DNA of 64,000 bases from Antedon mediterranea (Eukaryota > Animalia > Echinodermata): NCBI RefSeq assembly GCF_964355755.1, contig NC_092670.1:15362795-15426794 (forward strand). Reading direction: 5' to 3'. The position numbers and the translations under genes are program-made. How positions within the stretch are numbered: the first letter of the stretch is position 1; each line of letters opens with the position of its first letter. Of this stretch, positions 12,106 to 64,000 are shown piece after piece. The notes beneath the pieces were generated by a model. That model did not search any database, was not told the origin of the DNA, and saw only the letters and a list, made by a program, of their open reading frames with translations.

Positions 12106-12184
12106 GATTAAATACAATAAAAGAAAATCAATAACAGAGAAAATTTTAATAACAATATCTTTAACTCGTTAAATGTGCATATAA

Positions 12185-12270
12185 ATTAATTATAAATATT
12201 CCACAAAATACTAAAACGATGAGACTTTGGAAATTGGTAAAACAACCAAATACAGCTTCCAGAACGACAC
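12185..12270 (-). pseudogene. Relic of exon 1 of a third, older CYP paralogue
   Basis: ACAGCTTCC-AGAACGACAC matches the CYP start region ACAGCTTCCAAGAACGACAT, with ATG changed to GTG and a 1-nt deletion. The restored frame reads (M)SFLEAVFGCFTNFQSLIVLVFCGIFII versus MSFLEAVFDCNLSSLLIVFCVVLV. Confidence 0.55.
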
Positions 12271-24125: not shown

Positions 24126-27100
24126 ATGGACGCTTATTACGATGACGCAGTGTGGATGATTGTAGTGGGTTTCATAACATCTTTCTTTCTCGCTTTTGCC
24201 GTCGGAGCCAACGATGTGGCCAACTCTTTCGGGACTTCTGTCGGGTCACGAGCACTAACGCTCGGACAAGCTTGTATTCTAGCGTCAATATTTGAAACAC
24301 TAGGAGCTATTCTTATTGGAGCAAAAGTGTCGGACACGATTCGAAAAGGTCTTTTTGATCCAACGTTGTACGAAGATGATCCATTGTTACTGATGGTTGG
24401 TCAGATATCAGCACTTTTAGGTACGTACAGTATGTTTTCTGTTTTGATGAGGTCGACATGAGTGGGACCGTGCTTAAGAGAAACCGTCCACGATTTATGT
24501 AATGTTTACACATTACAGCTCTCTGACTAGATTCAACTAAATTCACTGACATTTCTTTTAAATCTTTCAGCTGCAACTATATGGATATTCATCGCTACTG
24601 CCCTTAAACTGCCAGTGTCTGGAACACATAGCTCCGTGGGCGCGGTACTTGGTTACCATTTGGCGGCATTCGGTGGAAAAGGCGTGGACTGGATTGAGAT
24701 TATTAAAATAAGTAAATATTCAGGGTACTATTGAACTATAAAACGTCTGTCTGTCTACACCAGCAAACTTTAGTTTGAAAACTCAGCCCCGAGTGTTTGC
24801 AAACACACATTTGTTATTGTTTGCTAGTGTACCCTAAGTCATAAACCTCTTAACAAACTAGTTTGCTGAGATTTGTGAAATTCAAATAACAATCTCTGGT
24901 ACGTTTTGCATTTGATCCTCATAGACAAAATGGCAGCTTCTATTAACTAGTCTAGACAGAAATCTTGAACTAGACTTAGGCCTAAATTTAACAAAAGAAG
25001 GTTTTTGAAAATGTGTGAAAATATAACACCAGTTAACAAACTTTGGAAAACTTCAGTTGCAGAAAAATAGTTTGCAGACGTTAAACCATATGCCTTCTTG
25101 ACAAACTAATTAGCATGAGGTGGTTTTTTGTGAACTCATGCTCACTTTCAAATAATAGTCCTACAGATCAGTAATTACTGGAATTGCATCAAAGGCTTTT
25201 TTTTCCAAACAGTGGAAAACTCCGAGTATGCAAACAAAAATATTGTTTTATTTAAGTTTTCATTAGACAGGTTTAACTCGAGGTTATTAGTATTGGCGGA
25301 AGAAACTGATTTTGTAGATGAAGAAACATTTCATTTACCGATCTTTTATAAACGATTGCTTTATTCTTCAAATTTTTCCTTTAGTACTGTCTTGGTTTGT
25401 ATCACCGGTCTTAGCTGGTGCTGTATCAATATTTGTTTTTTGGATCTTTAGAGAAACCGTTATTAAAAAGGTAGGTCTCTTTACCATTTTATTAGACTTT
25501 TCCATCGTCTCTTAGTTATTGTTAGTTGTGTATGTACATACATACATGTTTGGTTTATAATGTTTATTTTATGTAGTTTAAGTTGACTGCACCACTAATA
25601 AAGCTTTTATCGTTAACATTGCCAAAAGTTTCTAAAATGTTTTGCTTCTACGTAGAAGAAAGGCCTACTTTCATTTACTATATAACTAAATATATTATGA
25701 GGTAGATGTTAAGATTAGAAGCTACTGAAAAGTCAATTCAAGTTTCAGCAAGGCCTTTAGGTATTTTGAACAAAAAAACGACATAAAACACGAAGATGTG
25801 TAACACGAAGTGAATAAGGTATCTATCCATCATGAGGAAACATGGAATAGGTACAGCTAATCTATGAACAGATTGTATTGTATTTTATTTATTCTTCTTT
25901 CAGGAAGAACCGCTCGAACCTGGTTTGATATCGATGCCTTTCTGGTATGCAGTTGTAGTTTTCATTAACTTTTTCTCGATATTCATCGACACTGAAGGAG
26001 GTACAACAACTCTTCATAGAATAATCAACACCAACTAAGTCCTGTGAATTTTTTTAGAAGGATGAGATTTATTATTGTTATGCTATGTTAAGCCTAAAGT
26101 CGTGTATGTTACGGAATTTTGATGTTTTTTGTGTTTTTTTTAAATATCTAATGCTATCAAACCAATATTTACTATCCATCATCGCAATGTTAAATACAGT
26201 CATTTAGATCAACAATCTGCAAAAAAATGTGCTTTTGTTTGCAGGAATGGAGGATTTACCGATATGGGCAATTTGTCTAATTAGTTTTGGTATTGGTTTT
26301 GTGATTGGACTTGTAGTTTGGTTTGTATTTGTTCCTATACTACGAAGAAGAATATTAGGTGAGATTACATACATTTATGTTGATGACCATCATTGCAAAT
26401 TACTTAACATTTTGGAGAGGTATGGTCTCAATTAATTGAATATGTATTTTTTTTTTCTTGTAGTAATGATGGCTGAAAATGACGGAATTAAAATACCAGA
26501 AAAAGTAGAAACGAAAGGTAAGATTTCAATGTATGTTTATCAAACGGTTAATTATTTCAGAAGTCAAACATTATTTGTTTGATATATAAAGCGTGTTTCT
26601 AATTGGTGTTATTTTGATATATTGATATTAGAGTTAAGTGGGTTAGACAATCCTGTAATGTTGAGCAGTTATACAAAGACGGACGCAGACAAAAATTACA
26701 CCGGTATGTATTACTATTATAATATTTTGTTTGTCATAATAGGACAACATTATATACATACGCTTGGATAAATATTTTTTGCCATTTTATTGTACAAAAT
26801 CCCTGCCCTCTTTCGAGAAAAAACTAAATAAAAACCGTTTATTCCAAAAATGTGCAACTACTGTATGAGTTTCTTGTCGCGTCCATGTCGAACTATTTGA
26901 GTAACCAAAGAAGAGTTGAATAATAATAATAATAATAACACTAACACTAATAATATAATAATCCTTATAATCTATGTTCGGTTATTGTGTTATAGAAACA
27001 ACAACAGAGTCTGTACAGATAGAATCTGTACAGATAGAATCTGTACAGATAGAGTCTGTCAGTAAATCTATTGAAACTAATCAAAATGGAGAGGCACCTC

Positions 27101-29367
27101 AAAGTACAGGTAAAAAAACATCACATCCAAACCTCCAAATTATGGTAAAATACAATTTATAACAAAATGCTAATTATATTTGTTACGTTTCTATTAATTT
27201 TCTTCAAATGGTACAAAATAGCCATTCTTATGCAAACTTTTTTAAACTATACATTTCTCTTCTTGGCCACTTGGCAACAACGCAATTGAGTTGACCATCA
27301 CAAACGACATTTTGGATGATACCTGTTCGTCAACTCACTACTGGTAGACTTAATTATGCCGTTGCTTTGCGTCCAAGTGGGAACCAAACTTGGTTCTTGT
27401 GATTGGTGACATAAAACCAAGACTTCATTTATTTCTTTCTTAGATGAGGTAACAACGGAACATGAAAAACACGAGGGGTGGGAAACATTGAAGGACATCC
27501 CATGTATACACAGATTGTGCATGCCTCTTCAGATTCTTTCATCTATATTTTCATCGTTTGCGCATGGTGGGAATGACGTCAGGTAAGCGTTGCAACGCCT
27601 ATCTTTTCGATGAAAACTGTTTAAGCCTGGTTCCCACTAGAACGTAACGCAAGGACGTAAACGCAACGCAAGCGTTTTAACCAATGAAAAGCGAAGTTAT
27701 AGACAGTTAGCCATCACAAGCGAATAAGCTATCGCTTGTGATTGGTCAATTCACTTGCGTTGCGTTACATCCTTGCGTTGCGTCGCTAGTGGGAACCACG
27801 CTTTAGTGTAAAGTAAATCATTATCACCACGTGGTACAATTGGTGTTACACATCGATAGTTCTAAACATCAACTTTAAAGCAAGAGTGAAGTAAGCAGTA
27901 AGGACGTGTAGCCTACCAACCACGACTAAAGAAATACACACGTGCTTTATTAATACGTAATGCATTTTCCGTGGTAGGCTACGTCGGTATGTTGTTGTTG
28001 CAAGGTTGATGCTTTCTTTCTATTAACACACGTAGTCTACCTCTTTCTACCGTTTGCCAAATTGGAGTTATCAGCGTTGAATGAAGAATGGCGGGTAATT
28101 TGAATCACAAAGCGAGACGCGTGCTGTTGCCGTAATTATAGTTCTGTACGAATTCCAACCACAATTTAAAACATTTATATTACAGTAATTCGATTGGCCC
28201 GTTCGTTGCCTTATTTGTCATCTATACCACTGGTGACGTCGAGCAAGAAGCTCCCGTTCCAGTCTGGATTCTGTTCTATGGCGCCGTTGGAATGACGATA
28301 GGATTGTGGGCTCTCGGTAGGCGAGTCATCGAAACTGTCGGAGACGACTTGACACCTCTCACTCCTTCAAGGTAAAATATTCTTTTATATTTAAGGATTT
28401 TTCTAAAAATTCTATTATATACCAACGATTATATATGCTGATTCATAGTTGTACGTTTTAAGCCCCAACTCTATTTTAAAATCCTAGATCTATCTGATCA
28501 ATAGGCAGTGTATGTTGTTAAAAAGATACAATATAATTTCTATGTAAAACGCCTTTGAGCATGAACACAATACTTTATGCGCTACGATCTAGTAAAATAA
28601 ACAAAATAAACTATTGCATTATAAATTAATGCCCAATGTGTTAGTTCACTCTTGTGATGATATGATTTTATAGACCCGGATAAGAGAGTGCTGACTAATA
28701 ATAATAATATGTAATGGTAATGATTATTCATAATAGAATGCTATATTATTATATAATAATAATATATTATAATATGTTTCTATTCATATTCTTCCAATGG
28801 TTCAAAATAGCCATTCTAAGCCAATCTGTCGATTATAAGAAGCCTATTCTAAAAAGTATGCATAAAATAAAAATGACCGTAACCTATAAAACTTTAATCC
28901 AATCATTAAGGACTTTCGATTTACACGTCCAGTCTATGTCGACTGATACCGTATTACGTCATTTTATTGATTAATATTGCGCTCTGACTGAAATACGAGT
29001 AGACGTATATATGACGTCATAGCAATAAAATAAATAACTTTTTATTTGTATATATAGTGGGTTTACAATCGAGCTTGGCTCTGCAACAACGGTTCTGACT
29101 GCGTCAAATCTAGGCCTCCCAGTGAGTACAACTCATTGTAAAGTCGGTGCAATAGTTGCTGTTGGATGGTTCCGAAATCGCACAGCTGTTGATTGGAAAC
29201 TTTTTAAAACTATATTTTTAGCCTGGATTGTTACATTGCCTGCTACTATTGGACTCAGTGCTGGATTCATGGCGTGTCTACAATTAACCATTCGAGACTA
29301 TGTATATCCAACACCTACCGGTGGTGAAGTTATTTTTAACGCCACACGATCGATGTTGTGGGAGTGA
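24126..29367 (+). CDS. SLC20A: Sodium-dependent phosphate transporter, SLC20/PiT family (11 coding exons)
   Basis: Exons 24126-24420, 24571-24711, 25385-25470, 25904-26000, 26245-26358, 26464-26517, 26632-26703, 26996-27109, 27444-27582, 28186-28371 and 29058-29367 splice in frame. Signatures: [63 protein letters not shown]. Confidence 0.93.
27624..27802. mobile_element. PIF/Harbinger-like MITE (TIR AGC(C/T)TGGTTCCCACTAG), TTA TSD
   Basis: Inverted ends flanked by TTA on both sides, with an internal palindromic structure. Near-identical copy at 44888-45066. Degraded copies near 9770-9915, 35460-35612, 36724-37087, 41279-41425, 44140-44370 and 56432-56550. Confidence 0.85.
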
Positions 29368-33543: not shown

Positions 33544-34726
33544 ACATTGTATGTAGTGTTAGTTATATTGTGGAAATAAAATAGGAATTGAATTTAAACA
33601 TAGCTAGACTAAAGTAGGTCTAGTGAAGTAATAGGCCTAGTAAAGTAGGGATAGGACATACAATAAAAAAAAGTATATAATTTTTATTTTACGCTTATTT
33701 TAATTTAAACAAAAAAAAAAGTATTTTCATATTTAAGATTTATGAAAATAAGGATGGAAAACTTGAACTACATCTCAAAGATGACCAATTGATTGTAACA
33801 CAAGATGACCTCATATTGGTAACCATACTTTTTATTTCATCAATGAACTAAGTTTTGTAAAACTTAAAATAAACCTCTCACTGTCGCACTTAACTTACGT
33901 ATGAAAAATAACTAAGAATCTATAGGCCTAGTAGTATTCTGCCAAAAATTGTTTATACCCGGCCTAAATGTAAATGATAATTTCCACTAATCCATCATCA
34001 TATATTTTTGTATTTCTTACGAATGTAAAAGCGCAAGCAATGATAAAATTAATTTTATTATTTTGAGTACATTTACTCGAACACGTCTTTTCTGTATCTT
34101 CACATTTTATATAGGAAAGCTATTGCCTCAAATTAGCTGGAGACACTATCAGGGTACTCAGTAAAAGTGACAGTGCCCTCATATTTTGCCGAATCAATGT
34201 AAGTTATAGCCTCAAAAATAAGATCGTACAAAAATACGCGGCGTACACGTGACCCCCATTCTTGATACGAGCCAAAGAAACATTCCTGGAAAGTAACATA
34301 AACACATTGTAATAATTAGCCTACACTTTTTTCAGAGTGCGCATTTTCTATGACTTAATATAATGTTGATTGTTAGGCCTACTGTACCATTATATTATAT
34401 AGGAATTTCCAATCAAAATTATGATCAGTAGTTATGAGTTGGGGGTTGGGGATTGATTGTGTTGTCATATCTTGTTTGTTATCTTTGTTGTTCATTATAC
34501 AGCCTCTATTCCAATAATATATTAATAATGGTGTCAATGCATTTAATTTTATAGAATGAGAGTCGTAGATTTCGGCTTCAATTTGAATCGACCCCTGAAA
34601 CCACGACAAGCGCTCAGAATTGCGCAGACTTTCTTACCGCCATTCAGGGGTTTGTTAACTTTAGAAGTATGGAGACACATTTAGGAGAAATGGAAAGCGG
34701 AGACAAAAAGGTAGTATAGTAGTTGA

Positions 34727-35125
34727 GGATAACGACGACAATGCGATGGTACGTTCGTGGCAACGATGGCACATTCGGGGTAACGACGACCACGATTTTT
34801 ATGTTCGTGGTAACTATTATGACAACGATGGTATGATGACAACCATGGTACATTCGGGGTATAACGACGCGACGACAACGAATGTTCGTGGTAACGATGG
34901 CAAAACGATGGTACGGTCAGGGTAACGACGAAAACGGTGGTACGTTGGTGGTAACGACGACAACGATGGTACGTTGGTGGTAACGACGACAACGATGGTA
35001 CATTGGTGGTAACGACGACAACGTTAGTACGTTGGTGGTAACGACGACAACGATGGTACGTTCGTGGATAATGACGACAACGTTGGTACGTTCGTGGTAA
35101 CCATGGTACGTTCATGGTAACGATG
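34727..35125. repeat. Minisatellite, ~29-bp unit GGTAACGACGACAACGATGGTACGTTGGT, ~12 degenerate copies
   Basis: Visible tandem units. Accounts for the spurious ORFs at 34644 and 34681. Confidence 0.88.
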
Positions 35126-36817
35126 CAGTGGTAGATGTGAGGACAACGGCGGTGTAATGATCTGACGTTGACGGATTATAGTTTGAATTCTGTTTGATTT
35201 AAACTTTATGATTACTTCCTAATTCATTTTATTATGAGTTTAGACAGAAGAAATTTGGCGAGATTTAGATCAACCGTCGATGGACGAACCAGGTATATAA
35301 CGTACATTTGTATCTCTTTTATTTAGTTGAATAAACAGACTCTGCAAGGCGAAACTACATTGTCGAACATTGCAAAGGTAAACAATGACGTCATTGTACT
35401 ATACCCTTACATTGTCTCCATCATCGGACCATTGCTCAGTTGTTATAAAACGGAGTCAGTCTGCTTCCCACTTCATTGGACGCAATGAAGTACTTACATA
35501 AGCCCAACTAAGTAATTTGACCAATCACAACGCAATGGACAATCCAAACTTGTGATTGGTCAATTCACCGGCGTTGCGCCTACGTCGTTGTGGTGCGTCC
35601 AAGTGGGAACCATACTGTAGCGTTCCTATGTTTATACACGGAGTTACTTTTTTAATAGGGGTGTTCCGGGTTTAAAAAATAATTTGCGATATAAAAATAA
35701 TGTATTGGTGACTAGACTGCTGTAACATACTTTTAAACAAGAAAATATCAAAATTAATTCATTTCACTAAACATACTACTTTAAACATAAAGCAACAAGT
35801 TAATCTACATTATAATTCGTACAAACTATAACACAAAACAACATGTTGCAACATATGCACCAATGGAAAACATGTTTAAGGATATATGTCATATGATTTA
35901 CAAACGTATATCTTTACAATATTTTTTACTCTTTTTAACTGTAACTTTTTGATGGATTTGTACTAATTTTTAATTTGTACAAATCCACAATACAAGGGGT
36001 AGGTTAGGGTCTATTATACAGGAGTCACATGTGTTACACAGTAATATCATTTTGTATCATAGAATTTGTTACTGATACTTTGAAAAAATTGATACAGTAC
36101 CGAAAACCGGTTATTATTTCATGATGCGTGGTAGTCCTTTGTCGGCACGGAAGCAATGGTGTTCTATCAATGCGGATTTATAGTTGCTTATAAAAATTTT
36201 TTGGTGAAATCCTTTATTTATTGATAAAGGTCTTTCAACTTTTACGACAGCTAATTTGTGGAAGTTCGATTACAAGAAAAGTGTCTAAAGACACGACAGA
36301 TTTGAAAACAGTTTTATTGTTTGTAGACAGTGTTATTGTTTGTAGACACAAAATATTGTGATTTTGTTGTTTTTTTCTTTGCATGCCCGAGGCGTTTATT
36401 ACAAACACAACACAAACACCGTTGTATTCCGGCTAGTCAGCTTTATGTTTACATCTTTATACTGTACTTGCATAGGTTGAATGTACCGTAACCACTAAAT
36501 TACACTGTATGCTGACGCTAGACTTGCAACGAAGTCTGTTTAAAATTAATTGTACTATAATTGAGTATAATTTTACTTCCGGAAATCACGAATTAATTAT
36601 CTTGTTTGTAAACATAATTAATGATAACAAGACCGAAAATAATTGTATTTGAATTTTAGTGTTATTTTAAAATTGCGACTGCGGTTATTTTCAACCTAAT
36701 GTACGTTCGTAAAACCATCATTTTCTTGGTTCCCACTCGGAGGAAAACGCAATTACGTAAGCGCAACGCAAATAATTTGACCAATCATGATGCGATGGAT
36801 CGTCCCGACTGTCGATC

Positions 36818-40816: not shown

Positions 40817-43800
40817 ATGTATTACACGGATAGCAGTCGAGCTTTATTAGGCCTACTAGTAATGACTCTTATTAGTGGGTTTAGCGCAGCTCCTGTGAAC
40901 AATCAACTTCGGCAAGCAGAGAGATTTTTTATGAAGTGCGGTTACCTGGCAACAGTTGCAGAGGAAGATCAGCACTATAACGATGACTTCATCATCAGTG
41001 CTCTTGCTAGGTTCCAGATGACTGTCGGACTTCCAGCAACCGGTAAGAAACTATTTTCTACATACTTTATTTTTAGGTTATTATAGTTTTCTTCTTTAAA
41101 GCTTGGTTCCCACTTGGACGCAATGCAATGACGTTTGTTATTTGTCGGAAAAGAAATGTTTATTAGTTTTCCACTTTTTTCATACATCCTAGATTATATT
41201 ATATTGGATTATAAACAGAATAATAAATACTCTTCGGTAGTATAATGTCGGAAAGCATTCTTCTGTTGATTGTAGTAAAGCTTGGTTCCCACTAGAGACC
41301 AACAGGAGTAACCACGCGCAAGCAAGTTGACCAATCAAAAAACAATTCTAATAATCCATCGCCCATGATTAGTCAAATCACTTACGCTGCGCTTACGTAA
41401 TCGTTTTTTGTAACTAGTGCGAAACCGTTGAAGTAATTTTTAGTTATACATACGTATTAAAATGTTACCAGGAACAGAAATATTAATTTTACTAGTTTAC
41501 CTGGTAAAAGGCATATTCGTATCTAGGTCATTGTGATTTTGGTACAAAACCAAAAATGTTAGTAAAGCACCGTGTATCATGCGTCCCCAACAGGTTATTT
41601 TCGTATTATTATCTAATCCATGACTTAGACTATAATGCAAAATTGGAGGACTTCCAAATACGAAAACAGATATTATACAAACAATGAATAAACAATATCA
41701 ATGGAAAGTCATCCAAGCAGAATATACGCCGACAAACTTCATACTAGATTTGAAATGTAAAAATACTTTCTATTGTATGCAGAAGACAAATTAGAAATCT
41801 TATTGTTCACTTGGTAAATTTTAACAGTTTTTTTTTTTACATTTCCGTTACCTTTTCAAAATAAATTCCAGAACAGAAAGAAGATTCATAACCCGATATT
41901 GCTTAATTGTTGTTATGTCATAACTGTAAATAAATGCCAATCCAATCCAATGCACACGATTAGATAATGGAGATGTTTTACATCTTCCTGACTAGATTAA
42001 TACTTGGAGCAGGCCTATAATACTTCAGTACTGAGCCAACAGTATTGATAGTCTGTGTGTACATAGAGTACGGTAAGCCTCTTATTATATGGGCCTCTTT
42101 CGGTTCCAAGAAAGGGAGGCTAATACCTTTCGATATAACCGGTTTTCTAAAGTGTTACATCAGGAGGAAAGTTCTCTCTTGTACAGCCATACATTAAAAC
42201 ATATTTTTATATATCGAGATTTAGGCAAATTGCCAAGGATGACAAAGCGAATGTATTCACTATCCTTCTTAAATGTGGCAATCCTGTTCACAAAGACAAA
42301 CATTATACATAAGATGCTCTACACATGCTCTTATTACAAGTGTTTGGGTGTGGAGTTATAAATTGTTCTTAGAAAATAAATCCTAACACTGACAGGACTT
42401 GAACCCTTGGATTGGTATAGCCGCGCATCATAACTACCAATCCACAAATCCAATATTATTATTATTATTATTATTATTCATAATTTTATGATTGATACTT
42501 CATTAGAATAATAGTGACGGGGCACATTTTTTGAAATTCCAGCTCCACTGAAAATTAAATGCTATATCACTAGACGATCCTGTTTTTATTTATTTATGTG
42601 TTTGTATATGGCTACCATTGTGTACAGTAAAGTTTATTTTACATATCTATATGTTTGAAATAAAGTAGAGTGAGTGAGCGACTGAATCAGCTTGCTAACA
42701 TGGTTAAATCTAATTTCCCTATTTTTAGGAACTTTTACGGAAGAAACGTTTGTTCGAATGGAAAACATGGAGTGCAATAATGAAGGAAAGAGAAGGAGGA
42801 GAAGTTCGATCCCTGTCACACACAGGTGGTCCTCTAATGAGATCACCTGGGACATAGCCAGTTATTCAAAATGGCTTAAAAACAGCCAGGTTGACGCGAC
42901 AACAGAACAGGCTTTACAGGTACATTAGTAGTTTAGGTTCAAGACGGGAAGATGGCGTTCTATGCGTTTAATACTGGAGCTGGAATCATATTGAAATCCT
43001 CTTTCGAAAAGAAGTCCATCTCGACAAGAAGTCCATCTCTTTAGTTTACAATATCTAGAAAAAAAAAACTAAAAAGAAGCCTGTAGGCCTTAGTCAAATT
43101 GAAACGCTTACTGGTGGACTAACAGAGACAGTCTACTATACTATACAGTCTACTAAATGTAGCGCAAACGATATTAGTTGCAGGATAGACTCACTTTAGC
43201 CGTGTAATAAATGTCATGTATTTTATCGTAATCATCTGTTAATTAATTTTGTTTAGATGTGGTCAGATGCAGCGGACTTGACCTTTAAACGCATGCGAGG
43301 TGAATCAAACGTCGACATCAAGATATCCTTTGTCGAGGGGGTTCATGAAGATAATATCGACTTCGGTGGAAGAAACAGAGCCGTTGCGCATGCGTTTTAT
43401 CCACCTTCATCATCATCAAACAGCATCCCACTATCGGGGGATGTGCACCTGTACGATGGAGTCGTGTGGACTGTAAATAGTGCTACAGGTAGGCCCACTA
43501 TGTAAGAAAGTATCACCCTTAAAATATGACCTATGACACTATGAAGCCACGGCGCGCTGTGACGTAAACCCGTACAATTAAATAATTAATTTCTATCTCT
43601 TCCATGGTTAAAAAGCTTAAACATAAAAAACAGGTCGGCTTATATCGCAAAGTTTATTTTCCAAAATTTCCAAAAAATAGCAGACTACATCGTTCTATTT
43701 TTGAATGAGTATAGTAACATCAATTAAAATGATGATGTGAAGCCATCAACCACTGGCGGACAAGGTGTGGGTTCTACACAAGGAAAGCCCCGACTCATTT

Positions 43801-46800
43801 TGATTTTTAAAGATACATTCTTTTCGAGATAAATTGAATTGGTAGTCGGGTTGAAACATGACCAACCGAACGTATTTTAATAATAAATAAAAAATTAAAA
43901 TTTGTTTTTGTAGGCAATAGTCTGATGGTGCATCTCCTGCATGAGATTGGCCATTCCATTGGTATCGAACATTCCAGCAACATGAATGACGTTATGCATA
44001 ACCCACCACCAGCTTACCACTCAGACATACAATTGTCTGAAAATGACAAAGAAGCGGCAAGAGAATTATACGGTAAGCTTATAGGCTCAGATCAAGAGCA
44101 CTAAACAGTTCATTTCACGCCGCGACCGCATTTGCAGAAAGCTAGCACTCTGGGAAGCAACGCAAGGATTTTGACCAACCGTCGTTTGTTATGCTTGTTT
44201 TCCCAGTAGGGACACAGCGCGAGGACGTATACGCGCAACGAAAGGGATTTGTGTGACCAATCACAAGGGCGACGGATTTAGAACTCAATTGATTACGTCT
44301 ACGTCCTTGCGTTGCGTCTCTAGTGGAAACCAAGTTTTATTGCTTTGCGTCCTAGTGGGAACCAAGCTTAAACTTGATTTGTGCCACAGTGCGCACAAAA
44401 ATCCATTAACTTGTGTGTGTTTATTTTTATGGTGCGCCAATTAAATACCTTTTTTGATTTCTTTCACAATCGCAGGTGCCCCAACAGAGAATCCGGAATT
44501 TCCAGGAAACCCCATTGCACCACCGGAGGTGGTGAATCTCCCGGTGGTTACCCAGGCTCCTCCTCCAGACTGCATTGAATCGTTTGATGCTGCCACACAG
44601 ATGCTTACGGGAGAGATTATTTTCACTAGAGGTACAGTATATACATTTCTTATTATCATAATACAGTAGTGCAATCTAAAGCTTAGTTCCCACTAGCAAC
44701 GTAACGCGCAACCTCAAAACGTAAGAAAATGCCCTTCCAATAATTGTGTTTTCCTCCCGCTTGCGTGAAATCAAACCTGCGATGTTTGCAGCACTGTTGC
44801 GTCGTCGTTTCTCATGTAATACAGCACTTTGCGTCAATAAGTCGCTGCGTTGCGTTACGTTGCGTCGCTAGTGGGAACCACGGTTAAAGCTTGGTTCCCA
44901 CTAGAACGTAACGCAAGGACGTAAACGCAACGAAAGCGTTTTAACCAATGACAAGCGAAGTTATAGACAGTTAGCAATCACAAGCGAATAAGCCATCGCT
45001 TGTGATTGGTCAATTCACTTGTGTTGCGTTACGTCCTTGCGTTCCGTCGCTAGTGGGAACCACGCTTAAGTCGCTGCATTGCGTTACGTTGCGCCGCTAA
45101 TGGGAACCACGCTTAATAGTCTTATGTTAGTTAAATTTTATTTTTAAGTTTACTGTTCATATATTTTGAGTATTTCTGCTTCAGTTTGTAACAAACAAAA
45201 TGTTGTACTTTGTAGGTAACAATATGTGGAAAATAGGCCTAGATGATATCTTAAACAATAACATTATAAAAGACCCTCCGGTACCAAATTCGTCGATATT
45301 TCCAGGATTACCCGGCGACATTGATTCGGCAATGACAGTGCCGGACCGCGTTGAATGGAGAAGCATAGCTGGAAAAACATATTTCTTTAAGGTAGGTTAA
45401 TTTTTCTATTCTTCTTCAAGATACTTTAATGTACAATGTATAATAGGAAGATTATAAATCGGCTGTAAACTCTAAAACTTTCGTTTGATTCCTGTTCCTA
45501 AGGACGTGCGTAATGGGGTATTAAAATAACCAGAATTGTAGGCCTACTCTGAGAATGTTTTAAACTAATCCTTTAAATCGAACCGAGAGAGGTTTGGGTC
45601 ACCGAGGGTTTGTGAGAATGAATGAATCGAAATGATCGGAAGTGTACGGGGAAGGTTTTAAACTACTTTAAAAAAGGAGGGGTTTGGTTATGTAGGGTTG
45701 GTCGGGTGAGATATCATAAAAGGTTTTAAACTACTGTACATTTGAAAACTGCCACGAAAAGGGGAGCGGTGAACAGTGGAAGTTTTGTTTTTCAACAATA
45801 TTTTACAAAGGTGATCAATCCAGCCGAAGCTGATCATTAGGTACCCTCACAAAAATAACATTTGACAAGACATTAACATACAACAATTACGAATTAGTAA
45901 ACAATAACGATAAATAGGTCTACCGTCGGTGCTAATCAGTTTACTGTATTGTTTACAGGGTAACCAAGTGTGGCGGTATACAGGTTACAGCCTAGATACC
46001 GGTTATCCATCGACGATTAAACAAGAATTCAACATGGATTATCCCATGATAGACGCTGCCTTTTCGCTTGGTGACACGCTAGGCCTTTATTTCATTACCG
46101 GTATGTACGTTATAATTACTAATATATGAAGGCAATTATCTTTTTTTATAATTCAATACAATACTGTTTGGACGATGTTTTTGCTGTTATGGATGGAAAT
46201 CTGTAATAGCCCTACATAAAATAAAAATGATAGTAGGACCGATATAAAAACACTGTGTTTAAATAATACAGAAAACAACTACAGAAAACAGCTAAGTTTG
46301 AATAATTGAAAAATGTTTAAAATGTGACAGGAGAAGAGGCTTAATTTAAGCCACGGTCTTCCAAGAAGCCACGCTTCTTTGAAAACGGCGCCGTTCCATT
46401 CTGTATATTATGCAACAACACGACACCGTCTTCTGTGAGAAGTGTGAATGGAGCTAGCTCAGCTCGTACTGTCTGATCGAGAAAAAAATCAACAGAAGGC
46501 AGAGATGGCGTTTCCTGAACAGAATGGAGAAATACCCGAGCACATTTCAATCAAAACCAACTGAGTGTCCGTTATGAGAGTCAAAGACAAGGCATTTTTT
46601 TTTGGTTTTCAAAAGTGCAAAAAGGACTATGCGAAAGATCAGATCACACTACTTAATTTAAAATTTAACTTTTGTTTCTTTTTTAGGTGATCAATACCGT
46701 CTTCAAACACCATATATTTACATCGAAAACCTGCCTACCAATAGTTTCACTGGTTTCACCACCAATGCTGCAGCTGCCATTAATGTACTTATTGATGGAC

Positions 46801-46907: not shown

Positions 46908-47144
46908 TAGTTAAATAATATTTATTAATATTTATTTATTTAATTTATAAATCCCAAAGATACGATAGTTCGGATGTTTATAGCTGGCCTATAATATACA
47001 CATCCTTTTTAGCATAAATTATATACACAGTGTCATAATTGATTATATTATACTCTATCATTAATATTAACGACAAAAATGAAATATTCTGTCTCCATAA
47101 TAAAATAATCATTTACATGTTGCTATCAGATGGTGATTTAGTAA

Positions 47145-47280
47145 TTGTCACAAACGTTGTCATGTCACAAACGTTGTCATGTCACAAACGTTGTCATGTC
47201 ACAAACGTTGTCATGTCACAAACGTTTTCATGTCACAAACGTTTTCAGTAATTGCCACAAACGTTGTCAGTAATTGTCAC
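47145..47280. repeat. 17-bp minisatellite TGTCACAAACGTTGTCA, ~7 copies
   Basis: Visible tandem units downstream of the MMP gene. Confidence 0.88.
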
Positions 47281-52661: not shown

Positions 52662-55600
52662 TCAGGTGGAACCATTCCTTTTACTTGAACATACGTATGA
52701 CAGCATCATTTTAATTTCTTCCCGTACAACTAGGTCGTGTGGATGAACGTCAGACCCCGTATGGTGACAATTTGTCATATCCCAAACATCTATTATCACA
52801 ATATTTGGAACATCTTTCATAACGTCACGCATGATAGCATCCAATTTCATTACATACCAATCACTAAAATTAATTGTAGACGTTGGAGTGTAAGCGAAAG
52901 ACCGCGTATTAGCAGATTTAATTATCACTAACGTTTCTGGACTGCGTTGATAAAGTCTAGTCAACGCGTTTCGAACGCATATGAGACGCGATTGATAATC
53001 GTCCAACGTTACTCCTGTAAAATGTGCCCACATATTTAAAACAACCACTGTGTTTTTATCCGCTCTTAGTTTATCTATTTCATTGAACTCGTATTGTATA
53101 TTCTTAACTAGCATCCAAGTGTTTCGAATTGGAAGACCATGATGGAAAAACCTAGACGTAAAATTGTTCTTCGGATCCTCAGCCGTCAACGGACCGACTT
53201 TATAAGTAGATTTATGTTCATAGAACGTGACGTTATTTAACGTCGGTAAATACTCCAATAGGAAGTTATACCATTGACGTAATGTTGAGTCTCCGTAAAA
53301 ATATAAACGTTTGTTACGCAGACAAGACTGAACAGCTGCAGTACTTAAGTATCTGGCGTTACATACGTTAGAATGCCACACGTCTCTATAATAAAATCCC
53401 GAAGTCATGCTGGATGTAGGCCTACTACCTCCTGCAGACGATAAGCCTGGATTTCTCGCAGAAGGCCTAGGCCTACAGAACGGTAAATGTGCTTTGCATA
53501 GATGGTAGCCTTCCAGTTGTTCTGAAAATTAACAATAAGATTTAATCCGTAAGTTTTTACGTAGTCATAACGTTTTAACGGGATAACGTTTGGGTTCAAA
53601 ACTGTGTACCCGGAGCAACCATTTAAATGAGATATTTTGTTAATCAAGTACAAAAATGCCTTTTTATTTGGCACATGGATTGTTATTGGTCCTTCATGGT
53701 TCAACTTTATAAATGAAGTAGGCCTATTGGCTGCAACATTAGCCTTACATTAATATGTTAGTACGCGTTGTCTAGTGATCATTAAATCATAATCATCAAA
53801 TCAGATCTTTGTTAGTGTTGTTTTGATATCTTCTTTGTAAAATAATGTTATTGTTTGAAGCTTTAACGTTATTGTATCATAACTTTGTCAAAGATGCCGC
53901 TGATATAAAAGCATGTCAATATATCAATGAACTTTGTTAATAGTTTGCCTACCATTTGATTGCACTTTAATAGCCAATGGCTGAAGACGTCTTAAAACTC
54001 TTCGGATGTACTTTCTGGAAGTTTAATAATCACATGACAATGTCATTCAGATGCATTGAGTATGTAACGCTAAGTATAATGCATTTAATATTTGATTGAA
54101 ATACACCCTATTGATATTCAACCTATTTACCCTCCAAACCCTAAACTGACTTGGCCTCTACAGTACCAGCTTCAAGTGGTAGCGGAAAGGAGTTTTTTGT
54201 TTTCCAGCTCGATTTTGGAACCGTTTTGAGTTAGGCCTACCTTATTATTGTTATTCTTGCTGAATTCAAAATAGTAGGTGCTATTTGGATTTCATGGCCG
54301 AAACTCCGCACTAAACATGGTCATCCAAAAGTATCATTCGGTAATATTACACTGTTCATCTTATCCCATTACACCAATATTACAAAATGTATAGTTACAT
54401 ATAGTTATAATATTTACATTTGTTAGTTTTTGTTTGTTTTGGGGGGTTTTTTTTGGTAATGTTTCATGAAAAACTTACGTTTGAAATGCATCTTCCTCTC
54501 CCGGTAACAGTAGTTCATTTGTCCGTTTCTGTGTCAGTGCTGGGTTACCGTGGTGCTCTATCCAAGACGAACACGGTAGATTCTTTGGTTTTTCACAGAA
54601 CCATGGCTGCCCGGATAATTCATCGGTAAAATTGCACAATAGTCGAGATGAATCCAAATGTATATGACATTTTGTGATTTTTATCTTCTTTCCGGATTGA
54701 AACTTACCCTCGTAAACCATCCGATATGGATTCTCGTGGTATATTCTTTTTACAATTCTTATAACTTCACTTGGAATCATTAGCGTCACTTCAATATTCA
54801 CTAATCCTGTCCATGGTAACGTAAAATACGCGGAATACGTTCCATTCCCATGATCAATAATGTCTCCATTATTTGAAGAACTAGCATTTAAATTATCATT
54901 GTATATCCTGGCCCTGAAATAATCTCCACCATTTTGTTTAGGCCGGTTCCAGTCGTCACGTGCCTGGATAAAAACGTGTATTTTATCACATGTTACGTAT
55001 TTATTTTTCAAGTCAATGATCTCATATTTACTTTTTCTTGGACTTGTTATTTGGGAAGTTAGAAGGGTTGTTGTATCAATATTGTAATTATCGTTGTAGG
55101 CTGGTAAATCACGACCATATGTGACGAGGGAAGGAGGCGACTCGGGGCCCGTGGGGTACACATGACGTATAACGAATGGTGGATGTGTTGACTTCCTATC
55201 TGAATGTTTGTATTTCTCGTTGCTTGCGGATCTTGAAGAAAAACTGTTCTGATAAAATCCATTCTGTAATTAACAATAATAATTTGTAAGTATTTAAATG
55301 TGGTTTTAAAATACATCACAGATACATAACCTACATTATAACAAAAACAGAAAAAGTTAAATAAAATATAATAATTTAATTAATAATCTAATAATTAAAA
55401 GGCAAAAGAAAAATGTTAATTGTTCCGTTAATATAGGTAGAGAAATAACCATATCCTAATTTAGTAGTATCAAAATACTTTTATGTTCTATGCCATGGAG
55501 TAAAATTAAAAAAATCGAAACCGGTATATTTATCAATGATTCTCTGTCCTCGGATGTTTATATAGTTACTAAGCACAACGTAACGTTTGATCACTCATTG

Positions 55601-56089: not shown

Positions 56090-58647
56090 ATTTTTCCTGT
56101 TGAAATACAGTTTTACTGCTGAGTAAGTTCATTGTTAGACGACCGGTGTACATAACATCGGACCCCGCATCGGACCTATGATGAACAACTGATGCAGCGC
56201 GCACACAAACTATGCTCTGACGTCATGTTTAACACTCAGCATGCCTCCCAGGAGCGATGCTCTCTCGAAATTTAATAGACCTCTGTCTATCTGTGCTATA
56301 TCTTCTTTCAATCTGAGGTAAAGATAACATAAGAAGTAATGGTAATGTAAACACAAAACTGATAGTGACTTTAGTGTTCTTATTCTATTATTATCTTATC
56401 ATTATTATTATTTGCAACTATAAATCTGCTTAAGTCTGGTTTCTATTAAGACGCAACGCAATGACGTCGTCGTACGCGGTAGCGCAACACAAGACCAATT
56501 ACAAGCGATGGATTCAAATAATTTTTTTGTTCTCACGTTGCGTCCCATGAGAGCATTTTAATTCGTGCTTTACTTTTACACGGAGCTGCATCATCTTCAT
56601 TATCATTACTGGATAAATAAATCAAGTATCTGTTCTAAGCATATTATAACTTGACCCGTATTTTCAACAGGTATAACATCTATTTCCCCGTCTGTCAGTT
56701 AACACGTCGTGTTCTGTCCACAGGGACCCAATTCAACCCATATTATGATTTTAATGGCGCTCCTTATACGGACAAATGAAACTAACACAAATTATACATA
56801 ATCAGAAAAATGATTGAAGGAAGCGACCAATGATACCTGTTTCCGACGCATTATATGCGCATGCGCGTCTGCTTACATGCGGCGACTGGTCCTCAGTTAT
56901 TTCTTTGTGTGCAAATGGAATGACTGCGCAATTAGAACTATTGTAAATGAATAACACGATTCAATATGAAAGTTCTTCCTCCATAGCAATTAAAAGATTG
57001 AAGAAACTAAAATATGAGGCGCCATGATCGTAAATTCTGATTAGTTGTAAATGGATCGCCTTGTTTTAATTTCCTTTGATAGGAGAGCTTTGAAATACAC
57101 CAGGAACCAAGGGGCTTAGGCCTATCAAGAGAGGAGGGATAATTTGTCGGTTGACTTGAACTATCACATGGACTAACGTATGTTATGTATTAGTCAGCAA
57201 CATTAGGGTGAGGGGTTGGTTGTTTTTAGCCCTGAAAAGTCACTGGGAAATAAATAATGTTCACTGTTTGGTGGTTGAGATTCTCGGTTACTGCTCCTGG
57301 GTTCAAATCCCGTTATATGTCAGGATTATGATTTATTTTATTTTTTGTTTTATGTACAGTATTTAATGTGTATATGTGAACATTGAATCGCTTATGGTTA
57401 TTTATTCAATTTGCTTTTAGCAAAAAATAACACTTTAGATGAGAGGTTCCGCGCAAATGCACCATGTCGTACAGTCACGGCGCGGAAAGCGTTGGATGTA
57501 TAGTGTTGAATTTATATTAGTGAAATGTATAGACCTAATGTTATCAACTTCGTTTGATTCATCATGTGAGCTAATGTGAGAACCTTTTCCGGTACTTGAA
57601 TGTTAGAGATAACCTTTTTTCTTCTTTTATAGGATGCAAGCTTGATTGTTTTAGTTGGGTTTTTTTTTGGTCTTTGTATTTTGCTTTTGAATATGGACAA
57701 TTAAAAAAATAAAATTTAAATAAAAAAGTAGCTGATGATTTTCAGTGGAGAAAACACAAATTATTAGACAGTGCCTAAAATGCATTAATATGAAGGATTT
57801 CCAATTGTGAATAGGTCATTAAATTCGACCTTAATCGACACTCCCAAACCCGAATGCACTGAAAACAGGAACCTCATGCCTAACCCACCAAAATGATTTC
57901 CTTTTCTTCGCGAGACGATAAAATTAACATAATCGTATACTGTACTGCGAATCATCTGTCTTATTTCAATCATGAATAAAATACCAATGACCATCAATAA
58001 GTAAACGTGTCGTTATCGGTAAACTTGCGGTCCATAACGTTGCGTTCCGTCTAATTAGTGCGTGAACCAAAACAAAGCGTTAGCTTATTACCGCAGAAAC
58101 GAATAATCATATATCTTTCTACGTTTCAGAATGACGTCAACAAATTGTAATAACAAAACCCAACTTGGATTTTTGGAAGGAAAACGATAACGTCCAATCA
58201 TTACGCGGACCAGGCTACTTTAGCGTTACGTTTGGCATCCACTGAATCAGTGGATGACCTATCCCCTCAACATGTCAATTGTGGTATAAGTTGACAGGAA
58301 TAATACTCTGTGGTGTAATAAAAATGCCAGCGTGTTTATTTTAGATTGCAAGTGTTAAGAATAACTTGCTGTCAATTTTCAACTTCCTCTTACCAATGAC
58401 CAATAGCAAACAGGCACCGCTTGTCAATTTGGTCCTCACTGACTGGGTATTAACCAATCAATGTACTATTAGATAGGTCACTGATTTTATACAATAGTTC
58501 GCGGGAAATCTGATTTCCTTATACAATACTGTACAGGAATTTAATACTGTAGTGGTTGTTTATATCCAAATATTTCTCAATGCTGCTCTATGCAAAGCAA
58601 ATCAATTTAACTAGAACTACAGACACATTAAATAAATACTGTTAAAC

Positions 58648-61600
58648 ATGGACAATAGTGTTACTAGGGAATTGGGATGGCCGTGTGATATTCCATTCAT
58701 TAAATTTAATGGGAAAGTATATCTTTCACAAAATGACTCATTAAAATATCTTCGTATGTATGTCAGGCAGCGTTTTAAAGGCTGGAAGCCCTTTGATCGA
58801 TTTTGGGAACAAAATGGATTGATAGTCAATCATGAGGTACTTCCGAACAGTGCTATAAATGTATCACGAAAGCATATTAGTGTTTCATGTTTTATTCACC
58901 TGTTGTTGGGTGGTGGACATCTTGTAGACAATGTACAGCAGCAACAAACATATATAATTGATACAAATGAACACAATTTAAATTTGATAACTCTACGCGA
59001 TTTTATAAGAGATAAATGCGTAGACTCGGTCATGAACGACCATCTACTTGATAATATAAACGACGAGCCCGTGGTTGAAAATAAAAGACCTGGAAGAAAA
59101 TCTACAACAGAACTATTAGAAAGAATTAATCGCAAAAGGGTTAGGCCAGATATACCAGGAGTTCAAATATCCCCCGCCATTCCTCTTGATGGATCGAGGC
59201 GGCAGGCCTCAAAGCGATTTTCAAATCGAATGGAAGCACATCGAAAATCAATAAAAGATCTTTCTCGGAAGATTCATTGTGGAGGAAAATCTGACTTGCT
59301 GCATGCGTTCGCATGGTAGGTAGAAATAAACAGTTCCGATAAAAATAATTAACAAATTCTTATTCAATATATCTACGTAAATGTGTGAAGTTAGACTAAA
59401 TATGTCTTATTTACAGTATATCAGTAGGCCTAATATAGAATATTCGTATAAAAATATCAAAATATCCCGTAACATTTATACATATTGCAAGTGTACATAT
59501 ATCATATGGCCATTTTCACAACCATACCTAGGTTAAATCATAATAAAAATTGTTGCCAATATAATTACAACTTTTAGGGACCTAACACGTAAAAGTAAAA
59601 ACGACGGAGAAGCTGCAGGCGAATGGAATGGGGCAATATCGAAAGAAGATCTGGTGACTATCCTTACGGAAGCAAAGTCCCCCGATGATGAAGAAACGTC
59701 CGTGTTTGTAGAATTGATTCGGTATGTTATTTATAAATACCTATGTAGGCCTACCACAAAAATATAAGGTCCATCATCATAATATTATTATGTTGTATTC
59801 CACTTTGGGACATTCAGATCTCAGATATATCTGAGTTTTCTAGATTTAGAAAACGCAGATATATCTGATATCTGAATTTTCTAGATCTCAGTTTTTTATA
59901 TATACACCACACTTTATTTTATACATTTTATCATTTACAGAAAGGAAGCCGCTAATCATTTTTATATTAACGAGGAGGACCTGCTCTTTCTGGAAGACAC
60001 TGCAAACGTTGTAGGTGTACTTACATGGTTAAGAAAGCGACTTCCTGGATTTTTAGCATCTGAAAAAAGGGTGAGACTACTGAAGAAGAAGCAAAAGAGT
60101 GAATTTGAGAGAATTCTGCAGCCAAAAGCTATCCCAGGAGGAATAAAAATCGACATAGATGCGTTGCATGATACATTGATGCACGTTTACCATTACGTAA
60201 AAGGAAAGGAATGGTGGCGACTATATGGAGATGGTCGAATAATGGGAAAGCGGCAAACAACTGTACTTGGAATAACCAACATCAACAATGATCAAGCCCT
60301 ATTAGGCAAAGGTTTCCATAGTCCTCATGACTTTTGGAGAATTGCTGTATTTTACTTTGGAGACGATCGTGCCAACTTAGAAGCAAATCTACGTTGTGAT
60401 AATTCGCCATATTTAAATGACTGGGTTTGTAGAATGCAGCGAGATGGACATTACATATTTTTATCCTCAGATGCTAAATTTCAAGACGCAGTACTTGGAG
60501 GGAACATTGGTCCCCTAACAACTGATGGTTTCAACGTATATATTGAAACATCGAAAATTGAGAATAAAGATTATGATGCGACAACAGGCTTACGGTCAAC
60601 TATCAGAAAGTCAATCCAAAGAGAACATGATGAGCGCCTTCTAGAAATACCGATAGATCACTTTGGTGTATGTATTGACCATGGAATAACCAGAATCGTT
60701 GAGCATCAGCTTCGACTTCTCGTTCAGGAAATTCACTCGTAAGTATATTAAGTTATGTGTAGCTAAAAAAAATGAAATACGGTACTTTATTAAAAAATGA
60801 TACCCTTGTTATTATTTTCATTTGCAGTTTAATTTACCTCTTAACTTCCACATGTTTTTTTGTTTCAGTATTACTTCATTAATACCTGGAAATGAAGGTG
60901 TTGCACAGCGAAAAGTTAGACTGCAACATCTCGTTAGCAACATTAAAGCGCGGGGCGTAAACAGGAATAAGGATGGTGGATTCCATATCCAATTTGAAAA
61001 TGACCAACTGAAGCAAATTTCATTAAATAAACCATCTGCTCAGTTGATACTATACCCAGCCACCACAGAATTCTTTCAATATGACACGTCTGTTCCTTTC
61101 CCAGATATTTTCGATAATGTTCTGCCTGATACCCCATACCAAAAGGAGTTGCCAATTGATTTGCAGTCTAAACTAAATTTGCCATCTCCAATTATCACTG
61201 CCAAATACCTACAGCAGCAGATTTTTTACCATCTAGCATGCATGTATAAATTGCAAAGAGATGAACCGAGAAAATTAAAACCTGGTAAAGACCAAGGAAG
61301 TCTATCAGCTGACGATTACATCTGGGGGCACACGGATGATTCTATTACAAAATATACAAAACATGCCGACATGTTCCATCGCCTTATGGTATTTAAATAC
61401 GGCAATGTCTTCACGGGATATGAGATGAAATTTATAGATGTCGTACCGCAGCTTCTTCAATCAACCCCATTCCATTCAGTGATGCGGTTGACAACTGAAC
61501 AAGGAGAACGTTCACATTACATGGATATGTGCCGTTTTTATCAACATTCTACTAGAGGAGGCGGTATCCATAAACCCGATCCTATCCTAAAGTTGTTTGA

Positions 61601-62835
61601 ATGGCAATGGCGGATGATTCACCATCGAGTTAGAGATTGTCCTGTGGAAGTTCAACATCGATTTCATAATTTTATTGACAATAAAAATAGAGTTGAAGAA
61701 CAACCAGATTTGCATGCCAATGAAGAATCAGATATCGATGTTCTCGATGCCGATGGCGAACCCCCAAATGTCCGCTACGGCAATGAAGAACAGCCAGATC
61801 ATAACGAAGACATTACAGTAAATCCACCTATTGATGTCCTTGAAGGGAAATCAGTGGTTGTTGTGGGACGCCTATACAAACAGAAAGAATTAATAAAAAC
61901 TATTGTTGCTAAACATGGCGGTAGGGTTTGGACGAAAGTTCTCCCAAAGATGGGTATTCCCTTACCACACTTTTTAGTAATAACAACACAAGTGGAATGT
62001 GACAGAGAACCAAAACGAATTGCTATGCCACTTGCCGAATGTTTCAAAAGACGTGTGGATATTATAGGAGATACATTATTAAAAGATTTGGAAAATAATT
62101 CTTTCGCTGGAGATATTGATAATTATAGGCTCAATATTTCTAAATTAGAAAATGCACCATCGTATACAATCCAGGCAATACGACAAGATGCGAGTCTCCA
62201 GCAGTACAACAGGTTAGTATGCCATACATGAGCTAAATAAATAATTACTACAATAGTTTAATTATGCCATACGTGTAAAGATCAAACAAATACTTGTAAA
62301 AAAGCATCATATAACATGAAAAAACGCGTTAATCTTTTTCAGCAAATTACCGAGTGCATACACCTACCTTAAACGAAAGGAACGACAAGACAGAAAACCT
62401 CTTCAAGAAGTGAATCACGGACAAACTGCCCATGGGAAGAGAAAAAAGAAAATGAAGTCTGCCCCAAAAAGACGAAAATCCGGTTTCAACTTATTCACTC
62501 AATTGCATATGCCTCAGGTATTAAGATACGTCTTAAGTAAAATACCCTTAGATAAAAAGCATTATAATATGCTTATTACGTACTTCTTCTTTTCACTGCC
62601 TCTACCCCTCAAACTGTCCAAAAATGAGAGCTCAGCTATAATTAACATTGTGATGGATGTCTTTCCTTAGGTAATGCGTGAATATAAGGAGTTGTCATTG
62701 ACCGGTAAAAATGTAATTATTCATGACTTATGGACGCAATGTAGTGATGAACAACATACCGAATGGAATGCTCGTGCACTTCGATTAGTTCAGCCAGAAG
62801 TAGCAGAAAATGTACACAATGTCCAGGGAGAATAA
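58648..62835 (+). CDS. RAG1/Transib/Chapaev-like DDE transposase with C-terminal BRCT-like and HMG-box domains (6 exons, ~1097 aa)
   Basis: Exons 58648-59315, 59578-59721, 59941-60738, 60869-62212, 62343-62517 and 62671-62835 splice in frame with no stops. Motifs: RLYGDGR (D, 60230), FLSSDAKF (D, 60470), CIDH, FTGYEMKFIDVVP, TTEQGERSH (E, 61506), BRCT-like VLEGKSVVVVGRL..K..I...V.KHGGRV, HMG-box PKRRKSGFNLF...LWTQCSDEQHTEWNARA. Confidence 0.75.
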
Positions 62836-63590: not shown

Positions 63591-64000
63591 ATGGATTATT
63601 CTTATGTTAATGGAGAGCATGTTGAAGTGTTTGATGAAGAGTGTGGTATATGGAGATCGGCTAAGGTTATTAATATTAGCACGGATACCATAAGTGAACC
63701 TGGGATTTGTATTCATTATATTGGGTGGCAGCCAAAGCATAACACACTCATTTCAATTAAGAAACATATTCGCCCAGCAACACCATTCGTTACGGGAAAG
63801 AGAAAGCGAATTCCAAAAACGCACAGTGTTTCAAATTACTTTAAGACTGTGCCCGAAAATCTTGTTATTGAAGACCCTGTAAAATTTATGTACGATGGGA
63901 AACGGTTTCAGGGATTTGTCGTCGAAAATGACCCTTTTCTGAAAACAATGAAGGTTTCTTACGAGAACGGATATAAAGAAAAAGACATAACATATGCTGA
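63591..64000 (+). CDS. ORF with Tudor/chromo-barrel-like N-terminus, truncated by the window end (at least 136 aa)
   Basis: Open from ATG 63591 to the end of the window: MDYSYVNGEHVEVFDEECGIWRSAKVINI...ICIHYIGWQPKHNTLI...VKFMYDGKRFQGFVVENDPFLKTMKVSYENG. Absent from the ORF track because it has no stop inside the window. Confidence 0.6.
   Translation, partial: MDYSYVNGEHVEVFDEECGIWRSAKVINISTDTISEPGICIHYIGWQPKHNTLISIKKHIRPATPFVTGKRKRIPKTHSVSNYFKTVPENLVIEDPVKFMYDGKRFQGFVVENDPFLKTMKVSYENGYKEKDITYA

Follow-up and report, generated by a model that had tools for sequence, protein, structure and literature searches.

An intact transposase gene with a RAG1-like predicted fold and no C2/H2 zinc motifs in a likely mobile element of Antedon mediterranea

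The RAG recombinase requires the host proteins HMGB1/2 for its paired complex, and the PHD domain of RAG2 reads H3K4me3 (available part of PMC10536018). The enzyme nicks DNA and forms hairpins, and end joining then carries out the repair (PMC11844651, in its accessible sections). RAGL transposons are defined by four zinc ligands, drawn from the ZnC2 and ZnH2 sites (PMC7204232, accessible text). Transib elements are described in the accessible portion of PMC1131882 as 3-4 kb in length, encoding a protein of about 700 residues with 206-214 residues between the second catalytic Asp and the Glu, an SxxCxxC motif, a CACAATG heptamer and a 5-bp target-site duplication. For the wider CMCT clade, the available text of PMC12730594 reports both a C(2)C and an H(3-4)H motif in all named lineages, Chapaev included, and Chapaev also has a Chapa zinc finger at its N-terminus according to excerpts of PMC4411706 and bioRxiv 2026.01.24.700457. 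Here we describe a gene within 64,000 nt of the Antedon mediterranea genome (NC_092670.1, positions 15,362,795 to 15,426,794; this whole stretch is referred to as the window). We have good confidence that it is an intact transposase gene, belonging to a cut-and-paste element that likely moved recently, exceeds 8.7 kb and has CATTAC ends and a Tudor/Agenet-like partner gene, and that its family has a RAG1-like predicted fold and no C2/H2 zinc motifs.

The gene runs from an ATG at 58648 to a stop codon ending at 62835 on the forward strand, and its six exons join into 1097 stop-free codons. All five introns are bounded by GT..AG and measure 262, 219, 130, 130 and 153 nt. Sixteen of the 432 candidate donor/acceptor combinations remain open and differ among themselves by a few residues; the model used here is favored because it agrees with P0001 (XP_033095249), an NCBI-annotated protein of Anneissia japonica that is 58% identical to the spliced transposase over 1049 alignment columns. 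Four of the five exon junctions are gap-free in that alignment and the fifth has a one-residue gap, P0001 being an automated annotation and not experimental proof of the junctions. Contigs of run X5, which could only be guessed to derive from RNA, cover intron sequence without splice joints and are uninformative on expression. The original prediction for this locus had proposed six exons and five canonical introns encoding a stop-free protein of about 1097 residues. Both re-splicing and the comparison with P0001 uphold that model, and all of the motifs it named are found in the spliced protein.

The catalytic candidates are Asp 368, Asp 448 and Glu 750, conserved in 93/96, 93/96 and 112/112 aligned family segments, respectively. 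They lie 80 and 302 residues apart, matching the predicted D-80-D-~302-E spacing, and across 48 family cores the two intervals are 75-101 and 289-309 residues. His 518, after the second Asp, is kept in 83 of 85 segments. By motif order, we take the triad and H518 to correspond to RAG1 D600, D708, E962 and H795; the fold searches described below give aligned ranges rather than residue pairs. A DDE triad is also present in Transib, and the triad, the His after the second Asp and the organization as a two-gene element with terminal inverted repeats (TIRs) are all shared with RAG1/RAG1L.

In a full HMMER scan, 291 representatives fell within the transposase family at E<=0.001, and 150 of them were listed. 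Named members come from the crinoid Anneissia, the hemichordate Glandiceps, the sea cucumber Holothuria (13 of 44 rows in one listing of relatives), the lancelet Branchiostoma and the coral Desmophyllum, and further relatives lie on 30 metagenome loci, including divergent, intron-bearing ones with about 50% GC. Judged by profile similarity, the family is large, without a name and widespread in marine invertebrates. Those relatives that do bear protein names are labelled hypothetical, uncharacterized or BRCT-domain protein, except for a single E3 ligase annotation. None of 82 pattern matches in viral contigs and none of six in prokaryotic genomes was confirmed as a relative. A quick family tree, built without outgroups, places the window copy beside P0001; the position of the whole family is not readable from it. 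The divergent loci with about 50% GC are L017-L026 and could come from a non-animal eukaryote. Minus-strand open reading frames (ORFs) of L022 (3854-4780) resemble a Plavaka/CACTA transposase by eye.

The C2/H2 zinc site has been treated as defining for the whole RAG1/Transib/CACTA clade. In this family, CxxC is absent between the second Asp and the Glu from all 50 complete cores, and H(3-4)H occurs near its expected site before the Glu in one of 103 segments. An H(3-4)H can be found somewhere between these two residues in 18 of the 50 cores, with at most five at any single position. The sites of the lost motifs instead read W/F-N-x-Y and T-x-Y-M-x-K-x-x-D, and the family has none of the four ZnC2/ZnH2 ligands of RAGL/ProtoRAG. 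The replacement of the RAG1 zinc ligands, originally suspected for the window copy, thus extends family-wide.

For structural comparison P0001 was folded (pLDDT 81.9) and stands in for the window protein. Over about 400 residues its model resembles the RAG1 core and the RAG1L of RAGL/ProtoRAG (PDB 5zdz, 4wwx, 6b40; Z 19-21). The best match is mouse RAG1, with Z 21.2 and a root-mean-square deviation (rmsd) of 3.9 over 393 aligned residues at about 11% identity, followed by lancelet RAG1L (BbRAG1L) at Z 19.4 and the HzTransib hairpin complex at Z 19.0 (Transib structures PDB 6pqx, 6pqn). The P element transposase (PDB 6p5a), which has an RNase H core with a helical insertion, reaches Z 13.1 over 336 residues, clearly below RAG1, and Hermes reaches Z 8.0. 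The transposase core is therefore predicted to adopt a RAG1-type fold containing the DDE triad, as in the CMCT clade; the structure matches listed include no Chapaev or EnSpm, and the closest solved structure is not equivalent to the closest family. Pfam has no match to the core region in the window ORFs or P0001, and no transposase is found among the PDB sequence and profile matches listed (for one search, 60 of 83 rows), so it is predicted structure and language-model features that tie the family to RAG1. The top matches of the language-model search are cnidarian clusters without names; a DUF1280 cluster ranks ninth. The viral fold library returned nothing at E<=0.001 for either the P0001 model or a model of the N-terminal domain.

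Both RAG1 (Z 21.2) and Transib (Z 19.0) thus bear out the fold first proposed for this protein. Its assignment to the RAG1/Transib lineage holds as a statement on fold only, as the features that define Transib and RAGL are missing and the sequences and structures compared included no Chapaev or EnSpm. Unlike RAG1 and RAG1L, the family has no N-terminal zinc fingers in addition to its divergent sequence, missing zinc ligands and different triad spacing. Compared with RAGL, the partner is Tudor/Agenet-like rather than a kelch RAG2L, a BRCT domain and an HMG-like box are fused to the transposase, and the CATTAC ends do not resemble recombination signal sequences. Transib is likewise set apart: it shares short TIRs starting with CA, but this element is longer, has two genes, a wider interval between the second Asp and the Glu, no SxxCxxC and different ends. 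With Chapaev and the wider CMCT clade (EnSpm/CACTA, Mirage, Plavaka, ESTA, Lanisha) the family has in common its 5'-CA..TG-3' ends and RAG1-type core. It differs from the descriptions of these lineages in the absence of C(2)C and H(3-4)H and in an N-terminus that is Dachshund/Ski-like and not a Chapa zinc finger.

We also determined the left end of the element, which, like its second gene, was not part of the original prediction. Contig depth rises at 58199 in four of four runs, and in all four the first 32 bp from this position run either into the window sequence or into one other inner sequence, which is identical in the four runs; a 32-bp segment with two inner continuations therefore reads as two ends sharing a TIR. 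The end sequence at this terminus is CATTACGC, which does not contain a CACAATG heptamer with a spaced nonamer. A contig from run X1 tracks the left flank to 58198 and then enters different DNA, and in X5 and X9 the flanks beyond 58199 differ from that of the window. Depth in X1, which is not a measure of copy number, is 6,000-15,700 over the 5' 1.25 kb, about 245-305 in unique flank and about 160, or about half of the flank, in the interior. The high-depth 5' contigs carry frameshifting indels in exon 1, and the interior contig extends 2,981 nt beyond the window. We read this pattern as a single full-length copy, carried by one haplotype, alongside an empty allele and numerous 5' derivatives that are defective. 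Given the apparent empty allele and the abundance of frameshifted derivatives, the element looks mobile and not domesticated; the choice first left open, active or domesticated, leans with the sharp end as well toward a mobile transposon. That it is a transposon we consider very likely, and mobility at present is what we infer from these features.

Related loci show similar ends. In locus L010, 33-bp inverted ends that are 97% identical (CATTAC..GTAATG) bound a unit of 9,279 bp, giving the 5'-CA..TG-3' termini typical of the CMCT clade. L011 shares the right end of L010 but has a different flank, and in L016 homology to L010 begins at CATTAC to within one base, so that CATTAC stands at the left ends of both the window element and L016. 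As CATTAC is common (47 sites in the window), it was accepted as an end only with diverging flanks or an inverted partner. The terminal motif has a single copy within the window, and no TIR pairs were found in the other long loci searched. Several smaller features were seen around the ends. In X1 and X8, high-depth terminal contigs have two extra letters ahead of the CATTAC end (58197-58199), which could signify a target preference or a longer subfamily end. A small palindrome lies just inside the terminal repeat (58236-58256), and intron 2 of the transposase contains a palindromic, very high-depth repeat (59812-59885) that resembles a miniature inverted-repeat transposable element (MITE). L003 (1-13152) is circularly permuted, starting and ending in the same coding repeat, as might result from copies in tandem, from a circular molecule or from the assembly; element ends were not found in it.

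Extra genes are common in the CMCT clade, and the second gene of this element, which has counterparts beside related transposases, likely encodes a Tudor/Agenet-like protein. Of 621 window ORFs, the one starting at 63591 is the only match to a partner profile made from L008, L010, L003 and L026; the window row was in the alignment but left out of the profile. The L010 partner matches those of L008 (1e-7) and L003 (2e-4), and the partner proteins have a common C-terminal domain of unknown type. No kelch was found in the L008 and L010 partner ORFs, which show sub-threshold Agenet and chromo-like matches; 136 residues of the window partner are visible. Partner genes are present at 5 of 30 loci, most of the others being short, and on one contig of a second organism (record 21) the partner is linked to the transposase 3' exons. 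Part of the partner appears BAH-like with an Atlas score of 0.79-0.82 only, which is a lead. Two Holothuria proteins, P0097 and P0183, match both the transposase and partner profiles and may be fused gene models.

The transposase contains three further regions outside of its core. A BRCT domain is firmly established at residues 861-956. Pfam alone gives E 0.21 in the window copy, while a family profile that includes P0001 matches it at 1e-13, and the P0001 BRCT model aligns with MDC1 over 93 residues (Z 11.4, rmsd 2.5), in agreement with the BRCT-like domain first noted here. Of 30 relatives scanned, 12 pass the PF16589 (BRCT) cut-off, and an in-house profile found BRCT in 44/44 cores with at least 150 residues downstream, near-duplicate rows included. 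Several relatives have an IQ-like motif ahead of the BRCT. A putative HMG-like box lies at about 62461-62790, in a lysine-rich region. The whole-family profile matches HMG boxes at E 4e-6 (NHP6A), or 0.004 with a second alignment; Pfam HMG is below cut-off in P0011 (E 0.002), and a conserved, HMG-like Trp helix is seen in most of 43 aligned family C-termini.

The third region, residues 1-95, was absent from the original prediction and is likely a Dachshund/Bro-N-like domain of DNA-binding type, based on its model (pLDDT 87.5). Its best structure matches are Dachshund (Z 7.2) and Ski (Z 6.2), both middling scores, and among the named viral matches Bro-N and antirepressor proteins prevail, each at a non-significant E above 0.05. 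Across 53 sequences the domain is present one to four times each, and it is found in 29 of 32 relatives with enough upstream sequence (in-house profile, near-duplicate rows included); its profile matched no solved-structure sequence. A Cys/His protease-like domain with weak matches to UCH, C98 and Josephin is present in 23 of 32 relatives with long N-termini, and the window copy encodes no USP-like domain. Relatives with this domain at the N-terminus include P0004, P0011, P0015, P0021, L003 and L007, and P0011 also has a ubiquitin-like domain.

By analogy with the HMGB requirement, PHD reading and hairpinning of RAG, the element would encode a dimeric cut-and-paste enzyme with its own DNA bender, a BRCT domain and a chromatin-reading partner. 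A transposase dimer would grip the ~32-bp terminal repeats by a helical pre-core region and the N-terminal domain, and the fused HMG-like box would bend the end DNA in cis, as host HMGB1/2 does for RAG; we lean slightly toward this cis role. The D368/D448/E750 site, together with H518, would then nick, open the second strand in the manner of RAG1 and Transib, and join the ends to a new target, with RAG-type hairpin chemistry being reasonably probable. The single BRCT could hold the broken ends or dock end-joining factors, though docking of repair proteins is a somewhat doubtful role. The partner may read methylated chromatin, either steering insertion or shielding the element. In place of zinc, an aromatic/basic core (W/F-N-x-Y and Y-M-x-K-x-x-D) would serve as the scaffold of the insertion domain.

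Several observations weigh against this interpretation. The right end lies beyond the window, and the 32-bp repeat is a TIR by inference. A search for TIRs and target-site duplications had been proposed for this locus; the left end and the inverted ends of L010 answer the former, but no duplication is visible at the ends of L010, a single contig and the sole two-ended copy, and 2-5 bp would be expected in the CMCT clade. A coding segment found in L011 also seems to be missing from L010, so that a deletion or a misassembly may affect this locus, and the window itself may derive from the sample behind X1. The Tudor/Agenet matches are sub-threshold (Pfam Agenet E 0.038 for the window partner), and the assignment of the L026 partner to the group was made by eye. 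The folded protein was the relative P0001 and not the spliced window protein, and the HMG regions of P0001 and P0010 are both truncated as annotated. The HMG box originally proposed for the window copy stands at the family level but is weak in that copy itself, where 2/999 and 29/999 shuffles scored equally with two family profiles. This last point feeds an explanation that we rate somewhat below even, in which the accessory domains do other jobs: the BRCT would bind DNA or nucleosomes instead of repair proteins, and the HMG-like helices would be a generic DNA anchor, partly decayed here, with host HMGB still needed. The second-best structure for the P0001 BRCT is a single BRCT on nucleosomal DNA (7scy, Z 11.0), and the truncations in P0001 and P0010 point the same way, whereas the Trp helix and the family-profile score argue for an HMG-like C-terminus kept across the family. 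Other His residues are also conserved, with H763 at 94% and positions 751 and 756 at about 75%, and therefore a different metal site is possible. A transposase that keeps a structural metal via other ligands, and so is not zinc-free, would account for conservation of C515 (84%), H518 (98%), H763 and the His at 751, 756 and 616 (73-78%). However, the window copy has Arg, Asp and Asp at 751, 756 and 616, and 12 of 85 segments have Asp at position 515, which fits a C/D-x2-H active-site motif better than a zinc ligand; we regard this explanation as improbable.

The C/D-x2-H motif is shared by P and hAT transposases, which are not known to have the C2/H2 zinc site of RAG1, and P element ends start with CAT. 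A family nearer to these enzymes, cutting without RAG-type flank hairpins, would be consistent with the P transposase match and with ends that start with CAT, not CAC. RAG1, RAG1L and Transib nevertheless score 6-8 Z units above P with lower rmsd, and no THAP domain was matched in window exon 1 or in 30 scanned relatives, leaving such a relationship quite improbable. Domestication of the window copy as a host gene is more remote still. Five introns, an intact frame, an interior at single-haplotype depth and the 58%-identical crinoid counterpart could all suggest it, but they are set against the intact terminus, the apparent empty allele, the abundant 5' derivatives, TIR-bounded relatives and many Holothuria copies. 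A greater chance, though we still consider it unlikely, is that the element is already catalogued (e.g., in Repbase as Chapaev, EnSpm or unclassified) or is a Chapaev subclade with lost zinc ligands. Branchiostoma floridae, whose genome has long been curated for repeats, has members, the top language-model matches are nameless cnidarian clusters followed by the DUF1280 cluster, and the first-Asp and T-x-Y motifs presumably resemble those of Chapaev cores. Against this, the family has no Chapa zinc finger and instead an N-terminus that folds like Dachshund/Ski, Chapaev is reported with both zinc motifs, and the named relatives carry no transposon-family label. A literature search, with Repbase Reports, most subscription journals and the supplements of RAGL/Transib surveys outside its scope, found no published description of this architecture.

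With its RAG1-like predicted fold, missing zinc motifs and its own likely DNA-binding, DNA-bending and repair-docking domains, the family would constitute an undescribed and more self-reliant branch of the RAG1 enzymes. A more ambitious proposal is a new lineage at the superfamily level, with a zinc-free core and insertion without target-site duplication, in which a single element would supply what V(D)J recombination takes from its host: DNA bending in cis by the HMG box, a BRCT that passes ends on to end joining, and a Tudor/BAH reader replacing the RAG2 PHD. Many members would also carry a deubiquitinase-like domain. This proposal we hold only tentatively. A widespread, apparently mobile family without the zinc site shows an alternative working of the fold and bears on the relation of the clade to P and hAT. 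An HMG-like box and BRCT fused to a RAG1-type core, along with a putative chromatin-reading partner, allow a direct test of whether an element can itself encode the host cofactors of RAG (HMGB1/2, end-joining factors and histone reading). Since the enzyme is intact and the 32-bp end defined, an assay in vitro is feasible, and a compact transposase that bends its own DNA could be a useful tool. The features of the element are collected in Table 1.

Table 1 Features of the element in the window, with the basis or content of each.
Feature	Position	Strand	Basis or content
Left terminus, 32-bp likely terminal inverted repeat, starts CATTAC	58199-58230	+	Contig depth step
5' segment common to abundant, frameshifted, likely non-autonomous derivatives	58199-59453	+	X1 depth, exon 1 indels
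Transposase exon 1	58648-59315	+	Residues 1-95 (58648-58932), Dachshund/Ski-like, Bro-N-like domain
Transposase exon 2	59578-59721	+	Splice model and P0001 alignment
Transposase exon 3	59941-60738	+	D368 (60230), D448 (60470), aromatic motif at C2 site (60530), C515-x2-H518 (60671-60682)
Transposase exon 4	60869-62212	+	His-less motif at H2 site (about 61410-61440), E750 (61506), acidic linker, BRCT (61839-62126)
Transposase exon 5	62343-62517	+	Basic stretch and first helix of HMG-like box
Transposase exon 6	62671-62835	+	Remainder of HMG-like box and stop codon
Partner gene, two Tudor/Agenet-like barrels, runs off window	63591-63998	+	Partner-gene profile E 1.4e-6

Upstream of the element, a gene of the NXPE/neurexophilin family occupies 52662-55269 on the minus strand (Neurexophilin E 5.8e-25). 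The segments 116-3017 and 8995-11778 form a tandem duplication of roughly 8.8 kb that is 94-99% identical, with exons that resemble cytochrome P450 by eye. Other coding segments recognized by eye are a 462-residue ORF like the reverse transcriptase of a long interspersed element (3455-4843, plus strand) and an exon like that of a sodium-phosphate transporter (24114-24461, plus strand). Tandem arrays at 7676-7981, 34724-35143 and 47129-47264 have units of about 30, 29 and 17 nt. Dispersed short repeats in both orientations, MITE-like in appearance, lie at 27355-27807, 35549-35619, 41096-41134, 44290-45116 and 56429-56467, and the inverted pairs 49806-49842/52314-52350 and 5219-5310/38916-39002 may bound other non-autonomous elements.

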